NCBI GenBank assembly: GCA_030145345.1
Contig: JAQYVT010000001.1
Location: 13,013-77,012, forward strand
DNA: 64,000 nt
Source: Desulfobacterales bacterium
Lineage (GTDB): Bacteria; Desulfobacterota; Desulfobacteria; Desulfobacterales; UBA11574
Direction: 5' to 3'
Shown here: piece by piece, positions 3,998 to 55,095 of the stretch
Layout: each line of letters begins with the position of its first letter
Numbering within the stretch: position 1 is the stretch's first letter
Notes under the pieces: generated by a model
Told to the model about the DNA's origin: nothing
The model's input: the letters and a program-made list of their open reading frames with translations, nothing else
Database searches by the model: none
Translations under genes and position numbers: made by a program

Positions 3998-4291
3998 ACA
4001 TGACCTCTTTATAAGATGACCGCATTAAGGGCCGATGCCCAACTGCACCATACTGGAGATTTTCAATGATTGAAGCTCCCTGCAGCCCTGCAAGGCGGGT
4101 TTTCCGCCCCAGATAAACAGAAAAGACGATAATACCCCACCGTCTTCAATACCTGCCCGCCGTACAAGACTTTGGGAGGCGGGTCAAGGGCTCGCAGTAG
4201 ACGACGGCGGTCTATCCCGCAGGATCAGCGGGGTTTCATGTGTGTCTCGAATCTGGGGCATCCTCGACGTTCGCTCAATTAGGGAATAGGT

Positions 4292-45500: not shown

Positions 45501-46694
45501 TTATCTCACAATGGCGAAACCCAGACGCACGGCTTCGGTCCGCTCTTTATAATCGAGAAGGCTTTCCGCCAATGCATTGACATATTCGACCTGAAAATAC
45601 AGCCCCAGATTACCCTTAAAAAACCGGTGCAAAGGGTAGGTCAAATCGAGGGTTATGGAAGCGCCTTCCTTTGCCCATCGAAAATTTGATCCCAAAACAA
45701 AACTGTCCGCATTTCCGAGTTTGACCTCAAGGTCGAAAAAGCCTCTGTAATCTTTTAAATCCGAATTGGTCTCATCATCGTTGTTTACGTAGGCCCACAC
45801 TTTGGGGGCGACCATAATACCCAACTGGTTTTTTTCTTGGTAATGAATGAATATGGGTTGGGCATATATGATGTTTGTGCTGCGAGAATCTTCACCGCCG
45901 CGGCCGTTGGATTCGTGCTGAAAACCGGTCTGCAGGAACGGTTGGAGCCAGGGAAAGGGGGTCTTTATTTTGGATGATAAAAAAAAGAATTCCGGCTTGT
46001 AGCTGGTGTCTTCGAAGGGTTTGGATTCTGATTTTAAGTCCCAAAAAGATGTCTGGGTATACCCAAAATGAAACCCTTCGACCCATGGATATCTTTGAGC
46101 TAAAGCGCCTTTTTTATTGAAAAATCGATACTTGAAGCTGACCTGAAATTTACTGTCTTCCGGATCGGTTCCCACGAGAAAATACATCGGCTCATAGGCC
46201 GCTATGTTTTTTAAATAGGGTTGATAAAGGGCAAACAAGGAATCCAGCGTTTCAAATTTCTGTGGTTCGGACGTTACACTTTTGGGCGCCTCGGGCCGGG
46301 GAGGCTCAACATCGATCTTAAACATCATTGCGGCGCCATCAAGGTCTGGAATCTTCATGCTCACCGGCCCGTTAAGGGTTTGGGGAAGGGTCAGGGAATA
46401 CCGAACCTTTTCGAAACATTTTCCGCAAATACGAAAGGATTTCAAAGACGGTGCTTGAATAAGGTTGGCCGCTGTTTCCACCTGTTGATCGGAGGATTTT
46501 AAAACGCACTGAACACGGACGGGAAGATTAACAAGGATTTCATTCTCCCCTGTGTTGTTGAAAAAGACCGAAAAAACCATGTTTTGTCCGGCTTGGGGTG
46601 TCTCGGTGGGTGTCGAGAGAACCGTTTCAAGGGTACCGGCAAAAGCAACTGCATGGAAAAAAACAATCAAAACTGCCGCGGCTAAAATTCTCAT
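45501..46694 (-). CDS. pldA: Outer-membrane phospholipase A (OMPLA) with an N-terminal extension
   Basis: Signal peptide; YEPMYFL; the catalytic region FQHESNGRGGEDSRSTN (His-Ser...Asn of OMPLA). About 130 extra N-terminal residues compared with E. coli PldA. Confidence 0.85.
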   Translation of the reverse strand: MRILAAAVLIVFFHAVAFAGTLETVLSTPTETPQAGQNMVFSVFFNNTGENEILVNLPVRVQCVLKSSDQQVETAANLIQAPSLKSFRICGKCFEKVRYSLTLPQTLNGPVSMKIPDLDGAAMMFKIDVEPPRPEAPKSVTSEPQKFETLDSLFALYQPYLKNIAAYEPMYFLVGTDPEDSKFQVSFKYRFFNKKGALAQRYPWVEGFHFGYTQTSFWDLKSESKPFEDTSYKPEFFFLSSKIKTPFPWLQPFLQTGFQHESNGRGGEDSRSTNIIYAQPIFIHYQEKNQLGIMVAPKVWAYVNNDDETNSDLKDYRGFFDLEVKLGNADSFVLGSNFRWAKEGASITLDLTYPLHRFFKGNLGLYFQVEYVNALAESLLDYKERTEAVRLGFAIVR

Positions 46695-46721: not shown

Positions 46722-49700
46722 TTAAAAAAGTTTTAGCTGTGACGGACCCGACTTTTTTTTCTTTCCCGGAACCGGCGCTTCGTGGGCTAACAGGTGTTCT
46801 TCTATTTTACCGACAAACGGTGACAGCTCCCGTTTCTCGGTTTTCCCGAAAATCCTTCGTTTTTTTGCAAAAGTGAGATAGAGCCGTTGCTTGGCGCGGG
46901 TCATGGCAACGTAAAAAAGGCGTCGTTCTTCTTCGATATCCGGTGGCGACCCCTTTGTGTCCGGCCGCTGAAACGGCAGGAATCCTTTTTCGCACCCGGT
47001 AACAAATACCACCGGGAATTCAAGTCCTTTGGCAGCGTGCATGGTCATCAAGGCAACCTTTTCAGATCGATGACTGTAAGTGTCCGTATCACTCCCACAC
47101 GCAGCCGCACGCCATACACCCGTTTTATTAAAACCGAAATTTTTGAAGATATCCATCAGGTGTTCAAGCGCTTCTTTTTCCTTGGGCCCCGTGTTAAATA
47201 TCTTGGACAATCGGGTGTTTTCCAAAAGAAAAATCAGCTTTTCCTCCATAGACATGGCCGCCGTCTTTTGTTTCATTTCCAAAATGTTATCCAAAAATTC
47301 GTTGAGCCGCTTCTGCCGAATCTTGCCCATGCCGTTGATGGGAAACCGGCGTGCATTGATCAACCCTGTTTTTAGGGAAAAACGGTTTTGGTAACACCAT
47401 TTTTTAAAGATTTCCGAACTCTGCTTACCAACCGTCGGTTTGGATATATTTAAAGTCCTTTCAAAATCTGAATAACATCCGGACCCTTCGATTATTTTTA
47501 ACAATGAAATTAATTCTGTTATGCCGGTTTTGCCGAATAGGTTTTCCCGGTTAACAATTTGATATGGAATGCCGGCGGCATCAAAAACTTTGGAAATGAC
47601 CCTGTGTTGTTCGGACGTTCGATATAGAACGGCAAAATCGGAAAAGCTGATATTGGGTGTTTGACGGTGTTGGGTCACACGGTCAAAATCAAATGAATGA
47701 AATCCCATTCCACCGATCAATTGTTCGATGGTTCTTCCCACCGCCACAGCTTCTGATTTTTCAGAATACGTATCGATCACCCGGATGGTCTTTTCGCCGT
47801 GGATCTCGGAGAAGATCCGCTCTTTAAATCCGTCTTTTTTCTGGGGTTCGATGACCTGATAAGATGCGTCCAAAATGGTTTGGGTGGACCTGTAATTTTT
47901 TGTCAGATTAACGACTTCGGCTCCAGGATGATCTTCGACAAATCTCTTAAAATATTTGACATTGGAGCCCCTAAACCCGTAAATGGACTGGTCCGGATCA
48001 CCGATCACACAAATGTTACGGTTAGAACCCGGGGGTACAAGGGCTTTTATGAGCCGGTATTGACCATAGTTCAAATCTTGATACTCATCCACAAAAATAA
48101 ATTTAAAAAGATCTCTGCACGTCTCACAAAACCGATGATCTGTTTCAAGAATTCGAACGGCATTGAATATCAGATCTTCATAGTCGTAAAGTCTTTGGAT
48201 TTCCAACAAGTTTTGATACGTCGTATATACGGATAAAAATACCCGGGGAAATTCATCGCCACATTCATCGGGTTTAAGTATCCGTTGTTTGGCGCGAACG
48301 ATCCCGTCTAACAGGTTTTTGGGTTTAATGTTGACCGGGATACCCATCCCCTCGACGTGTTGGATCGCATCTGAAATTAGGGATATTCGGTCATTGTCGT
48401 CGATAAGGTAACGTGTTTTTTCTTCATAATTATTTAATAGCTCGAAGCAAAAACCATGAAATGTTCCGATAAAAGGATCTTGTTTTGGCCGGTCCAACAG
48501 AAGTTCGAGTCTTTGACGCATTTCCTGGGCAGCTTTGTTTGTAAATGTCACGGCCACGATATGTTCCGGTAATACCCTCTTGGTTTTTATTAAGTGTGCA
48601 ATTCTTTGCGTCAGGGTACGTGTTTTTCCGGTTCCAGGACCTGCTACGACCATCAACGGCCCGCTTTTATGCGCCACGACCTGTTTCTGTTTTTGGTTTA
48701 ATTCGCCGGGTTCAAATTTTTGTCCGGTTATTTTCTCGGGGGTAGATTCTTTGCTCACATTTCTGGGGGTATATTGTTTCGAAGTTTTCCCACCCCTTTT
48801 CTTTTTCCCCAAAGGGGGTTGGAAGGGACTGGAAATAAAGAGAGATTTTTGACCCAGCAGACGGTTTCGTTCGTCCTGACCGAATATTTTTATCTTCCCA
48901 AACTCTCCGTCAAATCCCGGAATAATATCGATTTCACTTCGGCGAACCCTCGAAATTGCTTCACCCAGCAAAGGAATCCCTGCGTCGTCGAGGATCTCTT
49001 TTTTAAGGGTCGTTAGAATGTCGAATTCAGGTCCCAGTGTTTCAATTAACGACCGATACGTTCCCGCGACCTTTTTAGAGGCCGGCCCCACTTTCAAAAC
49101 TTCCGACAATATCTCCACAAGGGGGATCGTGTTATAAAACGGATGGTGTCCATCGGGTTTCTCTCCTTCCTTTCGATCCGATAGTTCCTCGACCCTGTAT
49201 AACACCCCCAAAGTCAGGGGTTTTTCACAAACCGGACAGATGCCGCCCCTTTTACGCGTCTGTTTGGGCCAACTGCGCACGTTACATTTCCGATGTCCAT
49301 CAATATGATATTTTCCTTCTTCGGGATAAAACTCAAAGGTACCCAAAAATTTCTCAGAATCCCCGCTCTCCATGGCAGACCTTATGGCGGTGTAAGAGAG
49401 GTCCGTATCAAAAATATTGGCCTCTCGTCCCAGTTTCATGGGGGAGTGGGCATCAGAACTTGATACAAGAGTCAGTCCATCCAATCCAGATACCCGCCAG
49501 TTCATCGAAGGGTCCGAAGAAAGACCGGTTTCAGCTGCAAATATGTAATCGGCAAGATCTTCAAAACATTCTTCAAGGGAATCAAAACCGGATTTTGAAC
49601 CCAGCAATGAAAACCAGGGTGTCCAAATATGCGCTGGAATGAGAAATCCCCCATCAGAAGTCTCAAGAAGAATTTCAAGAAGGTTTCTAGCATCAAGTCC

Positions 49701-50120
49701 GAGTATCGGCCGCCCGTCTGATTTGATATTTCCAATTTTATCCAATCTTAAATTAAATTTTTCGGCCTTATCCAGATCGGATAAAAATACAAGATTATGA
49801 TTTTTCCGGGTTTTGTCGTTTTTTTTATAAATATTGCTGATTTCAGAAACCAGCATAAACCGGACGTCTCGGCGGCATGTTGTAGGAACTTCTTGATCAC
49901 AGACGGCGGATATTTCTTTTTTTAATTTGAACAGTCCCGGCTCAGCCGGTACCAGTTTTTCTTTGATTTCGGAAAACCATCCCGGATGTGTAAAATCTCC
50001 GGTTCCAATGACCGTTATACCTTTTAGCTGTGCAGCGATGTACAGGTTTTCAAGGTCAAGATTCTTGGCCGTTGCTCTTGAAAAATGGGAATGAACATGG
50101 AAATCAGCGATAAATTTCAT
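46722..50120 (-). CDS. Fusion protein: EndoQ-like PHP-domain endonuclease (N-terminal ~430 aa) plus UvrD/PcrA-type SF1 helicase (C-terminal ~700 aa)
   Basis: N-terminus: DFHVHSHFSRA, GTGDFTHPGW, GRP, PAHIWTPWFS, SSDAHSP.KLGREAN, GKYH, the Zn-finger-like ICPVCEKPLTLGVLYRVEEL, and PGFDGEFGKIKIF. These match EndoQ hallmarks from memory. C-terminus: Walker A AGPGTGKTRTL, DEYQD, and the TMHAAKGLEF / VAMTRAK helicase motifs. Confidence 0.85.
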   Translation of the reverse strand: MKFIADFHVHSHFSRATAKNLDLENLYIAAQLKGITVIGTGDFTHPGWFSEIKEKLVPAEPGLFKLKKEISAVCDQEVPTTCRRDVRFMLVSEISNIYKKNDKTRKNHNLVFLSDLDKAEKFNLRLDKIGNIKSDGRPILGLDARNLLEILLETSDGGFLIPAHIWTPWFSLLGSKSGFDSLEECFEDLADYIFAAETGLSSDPSMNWRVSGLDGLTLVSSSDAHSPMKLGREANIFDTDLSYTAIRSAMESGDSEKFLGTFEFYPEEGKYHIDGHRKCNVRSWPKQTRKRGGICPVCEKPLTLGVLYRVEELSDRKEGEKPDGHHPFYNTIPLVEILSEVLKVGPASKKVAGTYRSLIETLGPEFDILTTLKKEILDDAGIPLLGEAISRVRRSEIDIIPGFDGEFGKIKIFGQDERNRLLGQKSLFISSPFQPPLGKKKRGGKTSKQYTPRNVSKESTPEKITGQKFEPGELNQKQKQVVAHKSGPLMVVAGPGTGKTRTLTQRIAHLIKTKRVLPEHIVAVTFTNKAAQEMRQRLELLLDRPKQDPFIGTFHGFCFELLNNYEEKTRYLIDDNDRISLISDAIQHVEGMGIPVNIKPKNLLDGIVRAKQRILKPDECGDEFPRVFLSVYTTYQNLLEIQRLYDYEDLIFNAVRILETDHRFCETCRDLFKFIFVDEYQDLNYGQYRLIKALVPPGSNRNICVIGDPDQSIYGFRGSNVKYFKRFVEDHPGAEVVNLTKNYRSTQTILDASYQVIEPQKKDGFKERIFSEIHGEKTIRVIDTYSEKSEAVAVGRTIEQLIGGMGFHSFDFDRVTQHRQTPNISFSDFAVLYRTSEQHRVISKVFDAAGIPYQIVNRENLFGKTGITELISLLKIIEGSGCYSDFERTLNISKPTVGKQSSEIFKKWCYQNRFSLKTGLINARRFPINGMGKIRQKRLNEFLDNILEMKQKTAAMSMEEKLIFLLENTRLSKIFNTGPKEKEALEHLMDIFKNFGFNKTGVWRAAACGSDTDTYSHRSEKVALMTMHAAKGLEFPVVFVTGCEKGFLPFQRPDTKGSPPDIEEERRLFYVAMTRAKQRLYLTFAKKRRIFGKTEKRELSPFVGKIEEHLLAHEAPVPGKKKKSGPSQLKLF

Positions 50121-50666
50121 AGGGTTTTATTTTGGAGATATTTCAAATCAATAGAAGAAGTTAAATCCTGTAATTATTATAAAATAGCAGGTAAAAACAC
50201 TTGTAACATTCTTATAAACAGTATATATATTTATATCAAACAAAATTAAACACTATATATGGTGTTTTTTGAACTGAAACCGTGAGCGCATTCCCGTAAA
50301 GCGTGTTGAAACGAGGTTTATTCCGTGAATTCTATCGGTCTTTTCTGTTTAACTGAAGCGAAAATTCCGCCTTGCGGGGCTACGGGGATCTTTAATTATT
50401 TTTTTTGATTTCTCCCGCAATTGCTCGTTTTAATCACCGAAAAATACGGATGTTTGTGTTGATATTTTTTCAATAACTCACTACTTATCAACAATAAATT
50501 TTAGTGTGTTCATAATTAATCTTTTTTAATCATTTTTCATACGCTTTTTTAAATCATTTAAATCGTTTTTTTTATATCATTCAAATAGGTTAAAAGGTTT
50601 CTATTGTTATCAACAACCCTTACTCTTTATATAAATATACATACATAAAATTATAAGGAACAGGTT
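50121..50666. other. AT-rich candidate replication-origin (oriC-like) / dnaN promoter region
   Basis: DnaA-box-like 9-mers: TTATCAACA at 50485-50493 and 50607-50615, and TGTTGATAT at 50457-50465. Between them are three direct AT-rich repeats T6-8-A-(A/T)ATCATT at 50522, 50545 and 50566 (period about 22 nt). It lies directly upstream of dnaN. Confidence 0.45.
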
Positions 50667-51785
50667 ATGAAGTTTAAAATTAAAAAGGAAGACATTCTGG
50701 ATGTATTGTCCAAGGTTCAAGGAATAACCGGACGAAAAAGCAATCTGGCTATTACCTCGAATATTCTTATTAAAACAACAGGTAATGGTATAAAATTAGT
50801 GATAACGGATCTTGAAACCGGTTTCGAAGGAATATATCCGGCGGACATTGAATCTCAAGGCACCATAACGATAAATTCAAGAAAGTTTTATGAAATTGTT
50901 AAAGAATTTCCGAGCAAAGAAATACAAGTCGATGAAGTTGAGAATTATTGGATCAAAATTCACAATAAAAATGTTGAGTATAATATTGTTGGAATGAATC
51001 CCGATGATTTTCCTGAAACTCCAGAGATAGAAGATGTTGATTTTTTTACCGTCGATTCCCAAATTTTTAAAGACATGATCGAAAAAACGATCATTATTTC
51101 GGGTGCTCCTGATGAAAAAAGAACCCATATCACCGGAATATATTTTGAATTACAGCACCAAAAGAAAGAAAACATATTCAGAATGGTTTCAACAGACGGC
51201 AACCGTCTTTCAAAAGTGGATTGTATTTATGAAAAAGATTTAAAACTGCCTAAAAAGACCGGTATACTGGTCCCCAAAAAAGGAATGAGTGAAGTTGTAA
51301 AATTTTTAGATTCCACAGGAACCGTTAAAATTGGTATCAAAAATAATAATTTTATTATAAAAAAGGACTTCGAAACAATTATAATTAGGCTTCTCGAAGG
51401 TAATTTTCCAGAATATGGGGATATTATAAAAAGGGGATCTTCCCATGCGATCCATATGGATCGCAAAATGTTTGTATCCATGCTGAAAAGAATGTCTATT
51501 TTGTCTTCAGAAGATTACAAAGGGGTTATTTTTAATTTTAAAGAAGATAACCTTTCCATAACCACAACAAATCCGGAATTGGGTGAATCAAAAGAAGACA
51601 TGGTTATCGACTATAAGGGAGATCCCATAGAAGTTGCTTTTAATCCCAGATACATTATGGAAACCATGAGCGTAATTGATTCTGATAAAATAATTGTTAA
51701 TATAATCGATAGTGAAAAACCCTGTTTACTCGAAGGGGAGAATGACGACACCTATTTAAGTGTAATCATGCCGATGAGAATATGA
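50667..51785 (+). CDS. dnaN: DNA polymerase III beta sliding clamp
   Basis: 372 aa with [20 protein letters not shown]...; the three-domain length; the C-terminal [19 protein letters not shown]. Confidence 0.95.
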
Positions 51786-54217
51786 AAAAACAAGAAAACA
51801 CATACAACGCGGACAATATAAAAGTTCTCGAAGGACTTGAAGCGGTCCGAAAAAGACCGGCCATGTACATCGGGAACACTGGTATTGAGGGGCTTCACCA
51901 TCTGGTTTACGAAGTTGTGGACAACAGTATTGATGAAGCGATGGCCGGTTACTGCGACCTTATAAAAGTTATCCTACATACGGACAACAGTGTCAGTATC
52001 GAAGATAACGGCCGGGGAATACCCGTTGGGATACAAAAATCCGAGAATGTGCCTGCTGTTGAAGTTGTCATGACCAAACTTCATTCAGGAGGAAAATTCG
52101 ATAGTGATTCTTATAAAGTTTCCGGTGGACTTCACGGTGTGGGGGTGTCGGTGGTAAATGCGCTTTCAAAATTTATGGAAGTCGAAATTTATACCGATGG
52201 AAAAATTTATTATCAAACATATGAAAAAGGAAAAAAAACCAGAGAAATCAATATCATCGGAAAAACCAAGAAAAGGGGTACAAAAATACATTTTGTTCCT
52301 GATACGGAAATTTTAGAAACAGGCAATTTTAGTTATGATGTTCTGATTCGAAGATTAAGAGAGCTTGCTTTTTTAAACAAAGGCGTCCGATTAACCATCG
52401 AAGATGAACGATCGGATAAAAAAGATGAATTTTATTATAAAGGCGGCCTTATATCATTTGTGGAGTATCTGAATAAAATAAATTCGCCACTTCATAAACC
52501 TATTTTCATAGAAGGCATAAAAAATGATGTTCAAATAGAAGTTGCCCTTCAATACAACGATACATTCAAGGAAAAAATATTTTCATTTGCCAATAATATC
52601 AATACGGCCGAAGGGGGGTTTCATCTCATCGGTTTAAAGGCGGGATTAACGCGAACCGTCAATCAATATTCAACAAACGGGAACCTTCCAAAAAACCTTC
52701 AAGCCAAGATTAGCGGTGAAGACATTAGAGAGGGTTTAACAGCGGTTATAAGTATTAGAATAAAGTCCCCACAGTTTGAGGGTCAAACAAAGACAAAACT
52801 TGGAAACAGTGAAGTAAAAGGGCTGGTCGAGTCTCTGGTGAACGAGAAATTAAGTATGTTTCTGGAAGAGAATCCAACCGTGGGCAAAAAGATAGTTGCT
52901 AAAGCGGTGGATGCTTCCAGGGCCAGGGATGCAGCAAAAAGAGCACGGGATATCGCAAGAAAACAGGGTGCTCTTATCGATTCAACACTCCCGGGCAAGC
53001 TTGCCGAATGCCAGGTTTCAGAGCCTTCCGAAAGAGAAATTTTTATCGTGGAAGGTGACTCTGCCGGGGGCAGTGCCAAACAAGGTAGAGACAGAAAGTT
53101 TCAGGCAATACTGCCATTAAAAGGGAAAATATTAAATGTTGAGAAAGCCAGATTTGATAAAATTCTTCGAAGCGAAGAGATTAAAAATATCATTACAGCC
53201 CTGGGAACCGGAGTGGGTGAAGAAGAATACGATATTGAAAAAATAAGGTATCACAAAACAATTATCATGACCGATGCGGATGTTGACGGATCTCACATTC
53301 GAACGCTTCTGTTAACCTTCTTTTACAGACACATGCCCGAGATGGTCGAAAAAGGGTATCTATACATTGCGCAACCCCCCCTGTTTAAAATCGGCAAAGG
53401 AAAGAATGAAATTTATTTAAAACATGAAAATCAATTGAACGATCACATTTTAAAACGAGCATGCAATAAAAAAAATATAAAGCTTGGAGAAGAAGAAAAG
53501 ATTCTATCCGATCATAACCTCTATCTTTTCATGACGAATCTTTCTGAATATTTTTTGATAATTTCGAGATTGAAAAAACAAGGGATTATCGGCGATCTTA
53601 TCGAATTGTTAATTAAAGAAAATGTTGAAAACAAAAAATTTCTAAAAGACCGACAAAAAATGAGCCAGTTAAAAAAGACGCTTATTGAAAAAGAGTATCA
53701 TGTCGCTGAATTAACATGGAATTCGGAACGGGATGTTTATGAAATGACGGTTACCCCGTCGTTTGGCCAAAAGGGACGATTGTCGGAAAAAATGCCAAAC
53801 ATAAAGGTGAAACCCATAAAAATCGGCAGAAGCCTTATTTATTCCGGAGATTTCCAGAAAAGCCTGTTTTTGAGTAAAAACATTTTCAAATACGATCGTC
53901 CACCTTTTCTTGTTTTTAACAAGGACGATGAGGACAATTTCATTCGCATCGATGATAAAAAAGACCTTCTTTCTTTTTTTATGGAGGAAGGGAAAAAAGG
54001 TCTCGGCATTCAGAGATACAAAGGTCTGGGTGAAATGAATCCAAACCAACTATGGGAAACCACAATGAATCCGGACAAAAGAACCCTCTTGCAGGTAAAG
54101 GTCGAGGATGTGGTTGAAACCGATGAAATTTTTACCGTTCTCATGGGCGAGGCCGTCGAACCCAGAAGAGAATTTATCACCAGCAATGCCCTTGAGGTGA
54201 ACATGCTGGATATATAG
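51782..54217 (+). CDS. gyrB: DNA gyrase subunit B
   Basis: 811 aa with [32 protein letters not shown], the Toprim [15 protein letters not shown], and [10 protein letters not shown]. Overlaps the dnaN stop by 4 nt. Confidence 0.98.
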
Positions 54218-54303: not shown

Positions 54304-55095
54304 ATGGATATTCACAAGGTTAAAGCAAGGGATTTACCGGATCTCTGGTTTCAGGCGGTTCATGACATTCTTGACCGCGGCCGTCGGTTTAAAATAGATC
54401 GAGGAAGCTACGCCGGCCAGACAAGACTCGAATATGATTATTTTACCGGACACGTTCAGTATCCTGGAACCCAGCCGCTGTTGCCCGATATACCGGCATC
54501 CTGCGGGATTCCAAATCCTGTGGAAGAAGCCTATATTTATGGCGGTGAAGGCTATGAAAGATCGTACATCGAGTATCTGATGACGGGCCAAAAAGAAACG
54601 GGAGAATCATATACTTATGGTGAGCGATTGACCCGGGCGCCGCTGACCGGGGATCAACTGGCATGGTGGGAAGCGGGCAACGCGGAAATTATCGACAAAA
54701 GGGAGATCGACGGCAAAGCGGTTTTTGAAGAAGACGGACAAATCTACCTAAATCAGATCGAGTGGGTCATTCAGACCTATCGGCAGCATGGCAACCGCAA
54801 CAACCAGATGGTGCTTCAAGTGGCCCACCCAACGGATCTTACACTGCTGGACCCGCCGTGTTTGCGTTCAATCGACACGCGAATACAGGATGAAACCCTT
54901 CATTTTATAGTCTATTTTCGTTCATGGGATCTTTGGGGGGGAATGCCTGCAAATTTGGCGGGGATCCAGAATCTTAAAGATTACATGGCAGCAGAGATCG
55001 GCGTAAAAGACGGTGAGATGATCGTTGAAAGCAAAGGGCTTCATCTATACGGCTATGCTGAGCAGTTGGCCAAGTTAAGATGTTTGAAGGCTTAA
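54304..55095 (+). CDS. Thymidylate synthase family protein (divergent, archaeal-type ThyA-like)
   Basis: 263 aa. LDPPCLRSIDTRIQDETLHFIVYFRSWDLWGGMPANLAGI...GEMIVESKGLHLYGY parallels ThyA LPPCH..QFYV.DGKLSCQLYQRS.D..LG.PFNIA...G......GD.HLY. The N-terminus resembles archaeal ThyA. Confidence 0.6.
   Translation: MDIHKVKARDLPDLWFQAVHDILDRGRRFKIDRGSYAGQTRLEYDYFTGHVQYPGTQPLLPDIPASCGIPNPVEEAYIYGGEGYERSYIEYLMTGQKETGESYTYGERLTRAPLTGDQLAWWEAGNAEIIDKREIDGKAVFEEDGQIYLNQIEWVIQTYRQHGNRNNQMVLQVAHPTDLTLLDPPCLRSIDTRIQDETLHFIVYFRSWDLWGGMPANLAGIQNLKDYMAAEIGVKDGEMIVESKGLHLYGYAEQLAKLRCLKA

Follow-up and report, generated by a model that had tools for sequence, protein, structure and literature searches.

A predicted EndoQ nuclease–UvrD/PcrA-type helicase fusion with two candidate clamp-binding motifs, encoded beside dnaN in a Desulfobacterales genome

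Analysis of a 64,000 bp stretch of DNA from a Desulfobacterales bacterium (the window) confirmed that, as judged from its sequence, the open reading frame at 46722–50120 on the minus strand encodes a real, intact EndoQ nuclease joined to a UvrD/PcrA-type motor and carrying two candidate clamp-binding motifs. It is a single, complete ORF with an ATG start that encodes 1132 amino acids plus a stop, exactly where the original prediction had placed it. Its product comprises an EndoQ module (aa 1–413) and an SF1A UvrD/PcrA-type helicase core (aa 473–1112). The reading we favour, with a probability of roughly 0.55, is that of a single-polypeptide, clamp-tethered 'nick-and-unwind' repair enzyme for deaminated bases, which would belong to the alternative excision, or nucleotide incision, class of repair pathways.

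All of the motifs that had been named for the two halves were found in the right order. These were DFHVHSHFS (aa 6–14), GTGD (39–42), PAHIWTPW (162–169), SSSDAHSP..LGRE (220–233), GKYH (269–272), CPVC (295–298) and the EndoQ-terminal PGFDGEFGKIKIF (401–413), followed by the Walker A sequence AGPGTGKT (493–500) and DEYQD (678–682). A phmmer search of the PDB matched the EndoQ module to Pyrococcus furiosus EndoQ (5zb8) with E=1.7e-44 and the helicase half to PcrA (1pjr) with E=1.4e-88, so the matches lie far above chance. Both domain assignments also held in a domain search that included TIGR00375, PHP and UvrD_C. An alignment of relatives indicated purifying selection on both halves across more than 100 lineages. 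A chimera, in which assembly had joined a pair of genes, was rejected: assemblies independent of one another contain the same fused ORF, with 117 full-length clusters and complete or megabase-scale genome records carrying it, and the two halves of the gene have the same GC content (0.443 and 0.441).

The EndoQ module

The match to 5zb8 extended over residues 5–413 of the query and 5–383 of the chain. The NCBIfam model TIGR00375 aligned with the module from end to end (model positions 2–374 of 374) with a score of 163.5 bits, below the curated cut-off of 326.6 bits; the module is thus a divergent subfamily rather than an equivalog of archaeal EndoQ. TIGR00375 was nevertheless the sole family match of the N-terminal half, whose sole solved relatives were EndoQ structures, and relatives of the fusion protein carry precomputed matches to Pfam PF27218 (MJ0043_C). 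When the EndoQ half of an AF2 model was compared by Foldseek, 5zb8 and 7k30 ranked first; the alignment to 5zb8 (E=1.3e-19) covered 407 columns with a target-normalised TM of 0.73, on a model of only moderate confidence. This structural comparison with the P. furiosus enzyme agreed with the predicted EndoQ identity. Assignment to another PHP subfamily (histidinol phosphatase, Pol X or Pol III PHP) was rejected, as EndoQ alone was matched by sequence and by fold and the generic Pfam PHP models gave no match to the fusion protein at E≤0.01.

The PHP catalytic domain (aa 1–265; 49326–50120, minus strand) was delimited by alignment to PfuEndoQ and 117 relatives. The roles of the catalytic, wedge and base-pocket residues have been established by mutagenesis of PfuEndoQ (PMC5961232), and every residue found essential there is conserved here. 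The predicted metal ligands H8, H10, E93, H108, H164 and D223 correspond to Pfu H8, H10, E76, H84, H139 and D193, and R137 and H225 to the essential R114 and H195; none of these eight varied among 118 close sequences or across 150 clusters (50% identity), and the same holds for the base pocket G199-L200-S201 (Pfu G169, L170 and S171). The wedge residue W169 (Pfu W144) was invariant in the 118 close sequences and was W in 139 of the 150 representatives at 50% identity, with H in the other 11.

The Zn-binding domain (aa 266–332; 49125–49325, minus strand) was recognised from K270, Y271, H276, C279, C295 and C298. The DNA-contact residues K270 and Y271, which correspond to Pfu K243 and Y244, were again invariant in the 118 close sequences and the 150 clusters (50% identity). 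A zinc finger had been predicted from the CPVC segment. The segment is present, but the site has the form His-x2-Cys...Cys-x2-Cys, with H276, C279, C295 and C298 as the predicted His-Cys3 ligands, and not the Cys4 form of Pfu EndoQ (PMC5961232), in which the counterparts are C249, C252, C268 and C271. The His-for-Cys exchange is clade-wide, as H was found in 148 of the 150 representatives. The C-terminal helical domain (aa 333–413; 48882–49124, minus strand) ends with PGFDGEFGKIKIF, aligns as far as Pfu residue 383 and was matched to 5zb8 by Foldseek; with it, alignment and Foldseek together recover the three-domain EndoQ fold.

The helicase core, the linker and the candidate clamp-binding motifs

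The SF1A UvrD/PcrA/Rep-type core (aa 473–1112; 46785–48704, minus strand) was assigned from Pfam models, PDB matches and invariant motif residues. The Pfam models UvrD-helicase (229.7 bits) and UvrD_C (167.2 bits) both scored above cut-off, the phmmer match to 1pjr spanned residues 473–1112 and Foldseek matched this half to UvrD with E=2.4e-37. Motifs Q, I, Ia, II, III, IV, V and VI are present in order in a 1A/1B/2A/2B architecture, and their residues are invariant in the alignment of relatives. Besides Walker A (493–500) and motif II (DEYQD, 678–682), motif III lies at 707–718, IV (NYRS) at 742–745, V at 1025–1039 and VI at 1063–1077. The helicase is thus a complete SF1A enzyme as had been predicted, except for its length, put at about 700 aa: the core measures about 640 aa and is preceded by a linker of about 59 aa (414–472).

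The helicase half missed the NCBIfam equivalog cut-offs for PcrA (448 against 911 bits), UvrD (358 against 1144 bits) and Rep (363 against 951 bits); it is a superfamily member outside any named orthologue group. The match to the PcrA model stops at position 641 of 725, the core is followed by just 20 residues, and the C-terminal partner-binding domain of PcrA/UvrD is absent. Because this domain is missing and the scores lie well under the equivalog cut-offs, the helicase half represents a dedicated subfamily rather than the housekeeping PcrA/UvrD helicase. As the TIGR00375 and PcrA scores both fall below their equivalog cut-offs, the substrate range may differ from that of the characterised enzymes.

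The two modules are separated by a Lys/Gly/Ser/Pro-rich linker (aa 414–472; 48705–48881, minus strand), defined by composition, AF2 pLDDT and alignment variability. Its pLDDT was 24–29 over aa 430–470, its sequence and length vary among relatives, and the 59 or so residues are probably flexible. The full-length AF2 model (pLDDT 65, pTM 0.48) was too poor for inter-domain geometry; it served to match folds domain by domain, and weakly supports flexibility of the linker and tail.

Within the linker, 11 residues past the end of the EndoQ module, lies QKSLF (aa 424–428; 48837–48851, minus strand), an internal motif of the clamp-binding type. Of 120 close relatives, 117 have Q-x-x-L-F at this offset, as do 87 of 150 divergent representatives; Q424 and F428 are invariant in the alignment of relatives, and the second position is K where the consensus has L. 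According to Supplementary Fig. S1 of PMC4858679, QKSLF forms the C-terminus of short bacterial EndoQs, at roughly residues 420–425. That published table is the sole basis for this end point in stand-alone bacterial forms, the short sequences among the best 150 being few and uninformative or truncated.

The basic C-terminal tail (aa 1113–1132; 46725–46784, minus strand) was delimited by the end of the PcrA model match and by a pLDDT below 50 for aa 1110–1132. It closes with QLKLF (aa 1128–1132; 46725–46739, minus strand), a candidate beta-clamp-binding motif conserved at the C-terminus: among 118 close relatives, 117 have Q-[LMI]-x-L-F within their final 12 aa, as do 93 of 119 long representatives. 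QKSLF and QLKLF both fall in segments modelled at low confidence. In archaeal EndoQ a C-terminal PIP box is reported to bind PCNA with a KD of 55 nM and cleavage to be stimulated (PMC4858679); the conserved QKSLF and QLKLF would supply such a clamp-docking peptide C-terminal to the nuclease.

Distribution and genomic neighbourhood

Close relatives of the EndoQ module were found in at least 575 genome species, and the fusion family is common among sulfate-reducing bacteria. Most of the copies sampled are fused: the majority of the best 150 representatives (50% clustering) exceed 900 aa, and full-length fused relatives make up more than 117 clusters, some of them from complete genomes. In six Desulfobacterales genomes this EndoQ clade has been kept with no helicase attached, so the motor is dispensable for at least some function. 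At a few loci the EndoQ and helicase parts lie in different frames.

These losses of the helicase with retention of EndoQ, the loci with parts in different frames and the long, variable linker modelled at low confidence would be expected if the modules were independent, that is, if a general UvrD/PcrA paralogue were co-translated with EndoQ and the fusion served co-expression and co-localisation at the clamp only. Such an arrangement does not readily explain why the fusion persists in at least 129 clusters (50% identity) and many phyla, nor why the helicase lacks the PcrA/UvrD C-terminal domain and scores so far below the equivalog cut-offs, which points to a dedicated subfamily. We regard independent modules as improbable.

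Screening of 50,697 phage records returned no homologue, and one was found among 72,556 plasmids, so the gene appears to be housekeeping rather than mobile. These counts also speak against an anti-phage or anti-foreign-DNA nuclease-helicase on the pattern of Gabija GajB or RecB-type enzymes, in which EndoQ would sense uracil-containing or modified invader DNA and the motor would drive its processive degradation. An antiviral role of Bacillus EndoQ has been speculated upon in the literature, and the helicase half matched PADLOC GajB models with up to 321 bits, but these matches are weaker than that to PcrA (448 bits) and reflect generic UvrD-fold similarity. Gabija pairs its UvrD-like helicase GajB with the OLD-family nuclease GajA; neither GajA nor another defence partner was found nearby, the context is housekeeping, the chromosomal position is stable across an order and the two halves are equal in GC content. 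A defence system was considered very unlikely.

The divergent neighbour of the fusion gene is dnaN (50667–51785, plus strand), which encodes the beta sliding clamp, on which the fusion protein presumably docks, and scored 275 bits against the TIGR00663 equivalog (cut-off 138). It begins 546 bp from the start codon of the fusion, on the opposite strand, as the predicted adjacency to dnaN required; gyrB, a thyA-like gene, PLA1 and a porin are also nearby. Of 43 Desulfobacterales loci whose flanks are complete, 31 have a divergent dnaN no more than 6 kb away, the other flank being variable. It is missing in about a quarter of the full-flank loci and in two of six sampled relatives, and the adjacency could reflect inherited synteny alone.

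The AT-rich intergenic region common to both genes (50121–50666; GC 0.28) contains a highly conserved promoter-like block at 50191–50239 and two TTATCAACA boxes at 50485 and 50607. Inspection of the conserved upstream block by eye revealed no convincing LexA/SOS-box palindrome, and an Rfam scan of the window returned nothing at gathering thresholds. A nearby replication origin is possible, suggested by the two conserved boxes and a GC-skew minimum only, since DnaA boxes are not enriched over the whole window (20 found against 15.8 expected).

Proposed mechanism and relation to known systems

In the nick-and-unwind reading, the EndoQ module would flip out uracil, hypoxanthine, xanthine or an abasic site, and the Zn site of the PHP domain would cut the phosphodiester directly 5′ of the lesion, leaving a 3′-OH and a lesion-bearing 5′-phosphate. 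This first step is, at the level of sequence, strongly supported. The ATP-driven 3′–5′ SF1A helicase might then load at the nick on the undamaged template strand, a direction and strand that we purely infer, and remove the strand that carries the lesion in the form of a 5′ flap or of single-stranded DNA. The geometry would equal that of PcrA, which starts from a RepD nick ahead of a polymerase and is the nearest functional parallel to a nickase plus helicase. In the archaeal model a strand-displacing polymerase plus Fen1 do the strand removal proposed here for the helicase; published EndoQ pathway models already invoke a helicase step. Finally, the Q-x-x-L-F motifs at 424–428 and 1128–1132 would attach the enzyme to the beta sliding clamp, docking would stimulate incision as PCNA does with archaeal EndoQ, and the 3′-OH would pass to a clamp-bound polymerase for resynthesis, after which a 5′ nuclease and ligase would complete the repair. 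The motor would probably also free EndoQ from its nicked product, on which stand-alone PfuEndoQ stays, apparently as a single-turnover enzyme (PMC5961232).

The same retention of nicked product (PMC5961232) would suit a motor that mainly translocates, searching for lesions and releasing the product, with excision left to Pol I or other enzymes. Clamp-tethered EndoQ would then be moved along newly replicated or single-stranded DNA and stripped off the nick. EndoQ has been reported to cut ssDNA too and is thought to act with the replisome, surveillance coupled to replication would suit the two candidate clamp motifs and the neighbouring dnaN, and helicase-less copies exist. The retention of all unwinding-related SF1A motifs and a 2B-type region, more than a bare ATPase would need, speaks against a mainly translocating motor, which we consider less likely than nick-and-unwind repair; the two are not mutually exclusive.

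A bolder form of the nick-and-unwind reading, which we put forward tentatively, is a replication-coupled excision machine. Its two clamp peptides, one per module, might fill both pockets of a beta-clamp dimer left behind on DNA, while the enzyme nicks 5′ of a deaminated base, its own motor strips the strand and a clamp-bound polymerase refills the gap; the conserved divergent pairing with dnaN, next to a possible origin, would represent co-regulation with the clamp. If true, this would be a bacterial repair route without a glycosylase or Pol I strand displacement. Repair by EndoQ in archaea and bacteria is understood only as far as the nick. For what follows downstream, the fusion suggests a helicase step and a polymerase bound to the clamp as partners, and it offers a one-protein system for dissecting incision, unwinding and clamp coupling. 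The mapped motifs, ligands and boundaries supply the mutants: H164A or D223N, K499A, and deletions of 424–428 and of 1128–1132.

The PHP, Zn and helical domains of P. furiosus and Thermococcus kodakarensis EndoQ (5ZB8, 7K30-33) are collinear with the query at about 33% identity and share its catalytic and lesion-pocket residues and a clamp-docking peptide after the helical domain. The archaeal proteins differ in being about 424 aa long without a motor, in their Cys4 zinc site, in having a PIP box for PCNA where the query has QxxLF as a candidate motif for beta, and in lacking a 17-aa insertion at query residues 67–83. Bacillus-type EndoQ is about 390–400 aa long and has no helicase; activity with the same lesion specificity is reported for the short forms of B. 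pumilus and B. subtilis (Shiraishi 2017), so the family is active in bacteria. A Brevibacillus short form (27% identity) has a Cys4 site, His for the wedge Trp and no clamp motif. PcrA, UvrD and Rep (1PJR, 2IS6, 1UAA) share the 1A/1B/2A/2B core and all motifs with the query at about 30% identity, whereas the C-terminal domain of about 80 aa in PcrA/UvrD is replaced by the 20-aa basic tail ending in QLKLF. AddA, RecB and AdnB likewise join an SF1A motor and a nuclease on one polypeptide, but their nuclease is a C-terminal PD-(D/E)XK domain and they act on double-strand ends in heteromeric complexes; that of the query is N-terminal, lesion-specific, of the PHP type and predicted to nick one strand.

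The fusion adds an uncharacterised member to a family that had been noticed before; it is no new kind of system. Supplementary Fig. S1 of Shiraishi et al. 2016 (PMC4858679, Sci Rep 6:25532) contains about 35 long bacterial EndoQ homologues of 941–1244 aa, such as those of Desulfobacterium autotrophicum (WP_015906045, 1156 aa), Desulfobacter curvatus (WP_020586011, 1088 aa) and Geobacter metallireducens (WP_004512662). They share the length class of the fusion, its taxa (Desulfobacterales and many phyla) and QLxLF at the extreme C-terminus. With long homologues and the C-terminal clamp motif already published there, the architecture is not new and the finding is less novel than the original prediction had implied. 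Its statement that the fused form is biochemically uncharacterised held: no biochemistry of a fused EndoQ-helicase was found in the literature searched. A 2017 paper (Shiraishi) sorts EndoQ into three families by domain organisation and may already name the helicase. The C-terminal beta-clamp motif is the only one of these features named in the material of PMC4858679 consulted; the helicase, the internal motif, the His-Cys3 ligands and the synteny with dnaN go unmentioned there. New here are the internal QKSLF, the clade-wide His-Cys3 site, the missing PcrA/UvrD C-terminal domain, the recurrent pairing with dnaN and the occasional loss of the helicase. One Desulfobacter sp. locus encodes a fused ORF of 1089 aa that has the helicase in frame and ends in QLELF, which fits the published D. 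curvatus entry.

Identity of the EndoQ and helicase modules

The fusion gene (46722..50120, minus strand) is a single uninterrupted ORF with an ATG start that encodes 1132 aa. The original prediction, an endonuclease Q (EndoQ)-like PHP nuclease fused to a UvrD-type helicase, was correct in both observation and interpretation, and inspection of the sequence found all the motifs it quoted in the order stated. The generic PHP model of Pfam gave no match at the N-terminus of the protein. The NCBIfam model TIGR00375 (EndoQ/MJ0043 family) aligned almost end to end (model positions 2-374 of 374) with residues 5-410, at a score of 163.5 bits, which is under the equivalog cut-off of 326.6. A PDB sequence search matched residues 5-413 to residues 5-383 of Pyrococcus furiosus EndoQ (PfuEndoQ; 5zb8, 7k30-33; E=1.7e-44), and Foldseek comparison of the N-terminal half also returned PfuEndoQ (E=1.3e-19, target-normalised TM 0.73), ahead of any other PHP enzyme. 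The profile, sequence and fold matches together identify the N-terminus as EndoQ and not another PHP subfamily.

The PfuEndoQ numbering was rebuilt from the printed alignment and agrees with all the residues that the structure paper names. PfuEndoQ was then aligned with the fusion protein and 117 full-length relatives and, in a later comparison, with 150 sequences that each represent a cluster at 50% identity. The metal ligands H8, H10, E76, H84, H139 and D193 of PfuEndoQ corresponded to H8, H10, E93, H108, H164 and D223, the essential residues R114 and H195 to R137 and H225, the wedge W144 to W169, the base pocket G169/L170/S171 to G199/L200/S201 and the DNA contacts K243/Y244 to K270/Y271. 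Mutagenesis has shown these PfuEndoQ residues to be required for activity (PMC5961232). All of them were invariant throughout the close family and in the 150 divergent representatives, except for the wedge, which was His in 11 of the 150. The zinc site differed, as C249/C252/C268/C271 of PfuEndoQ aligned with H276/C279/C295/C298; this His was clade-wide (148/150 divergent representatives), whereas a Bacillales-type short EndoQ (Brevibacillus) retained the Cys4 site. PfuEndoQ also lacked a 17-residue insertion in the PHP domain (aa 67-83). Cysteines of the insertion region are encoded on the minus strand at 49899-49949 (aa 58-74) and at 49872-49874 (C82); C74 and C82 were invariant in the close family. 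Among the divergent representatives C82 was present in 94/150 and C185 in 148/150.

The C-terminal half proved to be an SF1A helicase, as predicted. Pfam placed UvrD-helicase at 474-731 and UvrD_C at 737-1086, both well over the gathering scores, and residues 473-1112 matched PcrA (1pjr) in the PDB sequence search (E=1.4e-88). The best NCBIfam model was PcrA (448 bits), followed by UvrD and Rep, all far under their equivalog cut-offs, and Foldseek returned UvrD, PcrA and Rep (E~1e-37). Motifs I (AGPGTGKT, 493-500), II (DEYQD, 678-682), III (GDPDQSIYGFRG, 707-718), IV (NYRS, 742-745), V (1025-1039) and VI (EEERRLFYVAMTRAK, 1063-1077) were accompanied by motifs Q and Ia, and their key residues were invariant across the family. 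The PcrA model matched no further than position 641 of 725; the PcrA/UvrD C-terminal domain is absent from the fusion protein, and a basic 20-residue tail stands in its place. The full-length AlphaFold2 model, built with 52 relatives as input, was only moderate (pLDDT 65, pTM 0.48); the Foldseek matches of both halves hold at the level of domains.

Authenticity, distribution and earlier records of the fusion

A search of 5.8 billion proteins revealed 117 full-length clusters with the same architecture (1127-1175 aa, 56-94% identity), some of them on contigs of 1.2-6.8 Mb, and the two halves of the gene were equal in GC (0.443 and 0.441). The recurrence of the fused ORF across clusters and species and the equal GC of its halves therefore rule out an assembly-joined gene pair. 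When one genome per GTDB species was scanned, at least 575 species proved to have a close relative of the EndoQ module; the best 80 were nearly all Desulfobacterales, among them Desulfosarcina variabilis (represented by a complete genome) and Desulfonema limicola. The fused ORF was intact in approximately 60 of these 80 loci; in a few the halves were interrupted or in different frames. In six of the 80 (L010, L012, L021, L032, L050 and L076), EndoQ of this clade (63-75% identity) stood alone as a gene of ~420-460 aa and the 6 kb downstream contained no helicase, which looks like occasional secondary loss of the helicase. L010 and L012 were still beside dnaN and kept the internal QK.LF motif. 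Exhaustive searching of 1.84 billion representatives with HMMER returned 3,623 homologues of the EndoQ module, 1,062 of them at E<=1e-30. The best 150 clusters (50% identity) included 129 of at least 900 aa.

Bacterial EndoQ homologues were reported to end in beta-clamp-binding consensus sequences by Shiraishi et al. 2016 (PMC4858679), whose Suppl. Fig. S1 contains short proteins (405-464 aa) and approximately 35 long ones (941-1244 aa), all with a QLxLF ending. The long homologues came from Desulfobacterales, Geobacter, Myxococcales, Desulfovibrio, Bacteroidetes, Cloacimonetes, Chloroflexi, Actinobacteria, Verrucomicrobia, Alphaproteobacteria and Spirochaetes, among others. As the fused ORF of a Desulfobacter locus (L078; 1089 aa, ending in QLELF, helicase in frame) matches the Desulfobacter curvatus entry of that list (1088 aa, QLELF), these long homologues correspond to the helicase-fused EndoQ family, of which the fusion gene is an intact member. 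A 2017 paper sorted EndoQs into three families by domain organisation, according to the mention of it in Miyazono et al. 2018. The literature searched, which did not extend to the 2017 paper, contained no biochemistry of a helicase-fused EndoQ, in agreement with the original prediction; the family is therefore known to exist but biochemically uncharacterised. It is abundant, and its members bear only generic annotations such as 'UvrD-helicase domain-containing protein'. Its interest, which we consider moderate, lies mainly in giving tractable access to the later steps of EndoQ repair, those that follow the nick.

Clamp-type motifs and predicted mechanism

The terminal QLKLF (1128-1132) was kept in 117/118 close relatives and 93/119 long representatives. 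A second Q-x-x-L-F motif is internal (QKSLF, 424-428), exactly 11 residues past the final strand of the EndoQ module, and was present in 117/120 close relatives and 87/150 divergent representatives; Q424 and F428 were invariant in the family alignment. Short bacterial EndoQs terminate at the position of the internal motif, for example Thermodesulfatator with QKSLF at 420-424 (PMC4858679 table), which suggests that the helicase was added behind an EndoQ that was already a putative clamp binder. Both motifs fall within low-confidence, probably flexible segments of the AlphaFold2 model, the linker (425-472) and the tail (1110-1132). The internal motif, the conservation of both motifs, their setting and the dnaN synteny are additions of the present analysis.

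By homology, the N-terminal module is expected to cut 5′ of deaminated bases and AP sites, and the C-terminal module to work as an ATP-dependent 3′-5′ SF1A motor. Once the incision is made, the helicase would load at the nick onto the undamaged strand and travel 3′-5′ along it, the direction in which a repair polymerase moves on its template, displacing the strand whose 5′ end bears the lesion. Held via one or both QxxLF peptides, the clamp would promote nuclease activity, in the way that PCNA stimulates EndoQ in Thermococcales, and would also bring a polymerase to the 3′-OH. Published EndoQ pathway schemes include either a post-nick helicase or strand displacement plus Fen1. EndoQ remains bound to its nicked product, so a covalently attached motor would also solve the problem of turnover. 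Turnover figures too in a tentative alternative, in which the helicase is a translocase for search or turnover; that the two modules are independent of each other is unlikely. A role in defence is very improbable: PADLOC did return GajB matches, but these were generic and weaker than the PcrA match, the locus context is housekeeping, and homologues were absent from 50,697 phage records and found on only one of 72,556 plasmids.

The dnaN-proximal locus

The dnaN gene (50667..51785, plus strand), which encodes the beta sliding clamp and is securely assigned (TIGR00663, 275 bits against a cut-off of 138), is divergent from the fusion gene, with 546 bp between the two start codons, and is followed by gyrB (51782..54217). 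Both are markedly lower in GC (0.33 and 0.39) than the window average of 0.46; dnaN was similarly low (0.33-0.34) in three relatives. Among 43 Desulfobacterales loci with full flanks, dnaN was divergently upstream within 6 kb in 31 and directly adjacent in nine. Its orientation was divergent in all 42 cases where it was seen. Neighbours on the other side varied among the sampled relatives (PLA1, TetR, CMAS, DUF169), and in one relative the genes beyond dnaN were different as well. Two relatives lacked an adjacent dnaN.

An AT-rich block (50191-50239, flanks about 50170-50262), ~70-120 bp upstream of the fusion-gene start codon, was near-invariant (1-6 changes per 49 nt) even though the relatives' proteins were only 63-86% identical. 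It was found only where dnaN was directly adjacent (L004, L005, L006, L008 and L043; weaker in L020 and L025). The block reads as a sigma70-like promoter (TTGATA, 17 nt, TATAAG) that faces the fusion gene; an operator common to the fusion gene and dnaN may lie within it. The whole divergent intergenic region (50121-50666) had a GC content of 0.28 and contained two TTATCAACA boxes (DnaA box, one mismatch) at 50485-50493 and 50607-50615, both also conserved among relatives. Within the window, cumulative GC skew was lowest at 48-52 kb; DnaA boxes counted over the whole window showed no enrichment. The region may represent oriC, or a dnaN promoter regulated by DnaA. Within it lies a GC-rich insert (50262-50400) present only in the window and, in part, in the 86% relative. 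Approximately 70 bp of the insert (…GTCTTTTCTGTTTA.CTG..GCG.AAA..CCGCCTTGC.GGGCT.C.GGGA…) recurs in another intergenic region at about 4060-4130 (minus strand). It resembles a small dispersed repeat or a structured element; Rfam gave no match.

A phospholipase A1 (PLA1) gene (45501-46694, minus strand) starts 27 bp past the fusion-gene stop codon on the same strand and is followed by an OprB-type porin gene. Co-transcription of the fusion gene and PLA1 is possible; the linkage is not conserved, as the PLA1 and porin arrangement was also present in the 86% relative (L006) but absent from more distant relatives.

The gene after gyrB (54304-55095, plus strand) showed weak, partial similarity to bacterial ThyA (Pfam, 43 bits); its best match was the methanogen-type thymidylate synthase TIGR03283 (99 bits, below the cut-off of 174.6). 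An archaeal-type dTMP-synthase-like gene close to a uracil-directed nuclease may merit a look, and its position after gyrB was kept in relatives L004-L006.
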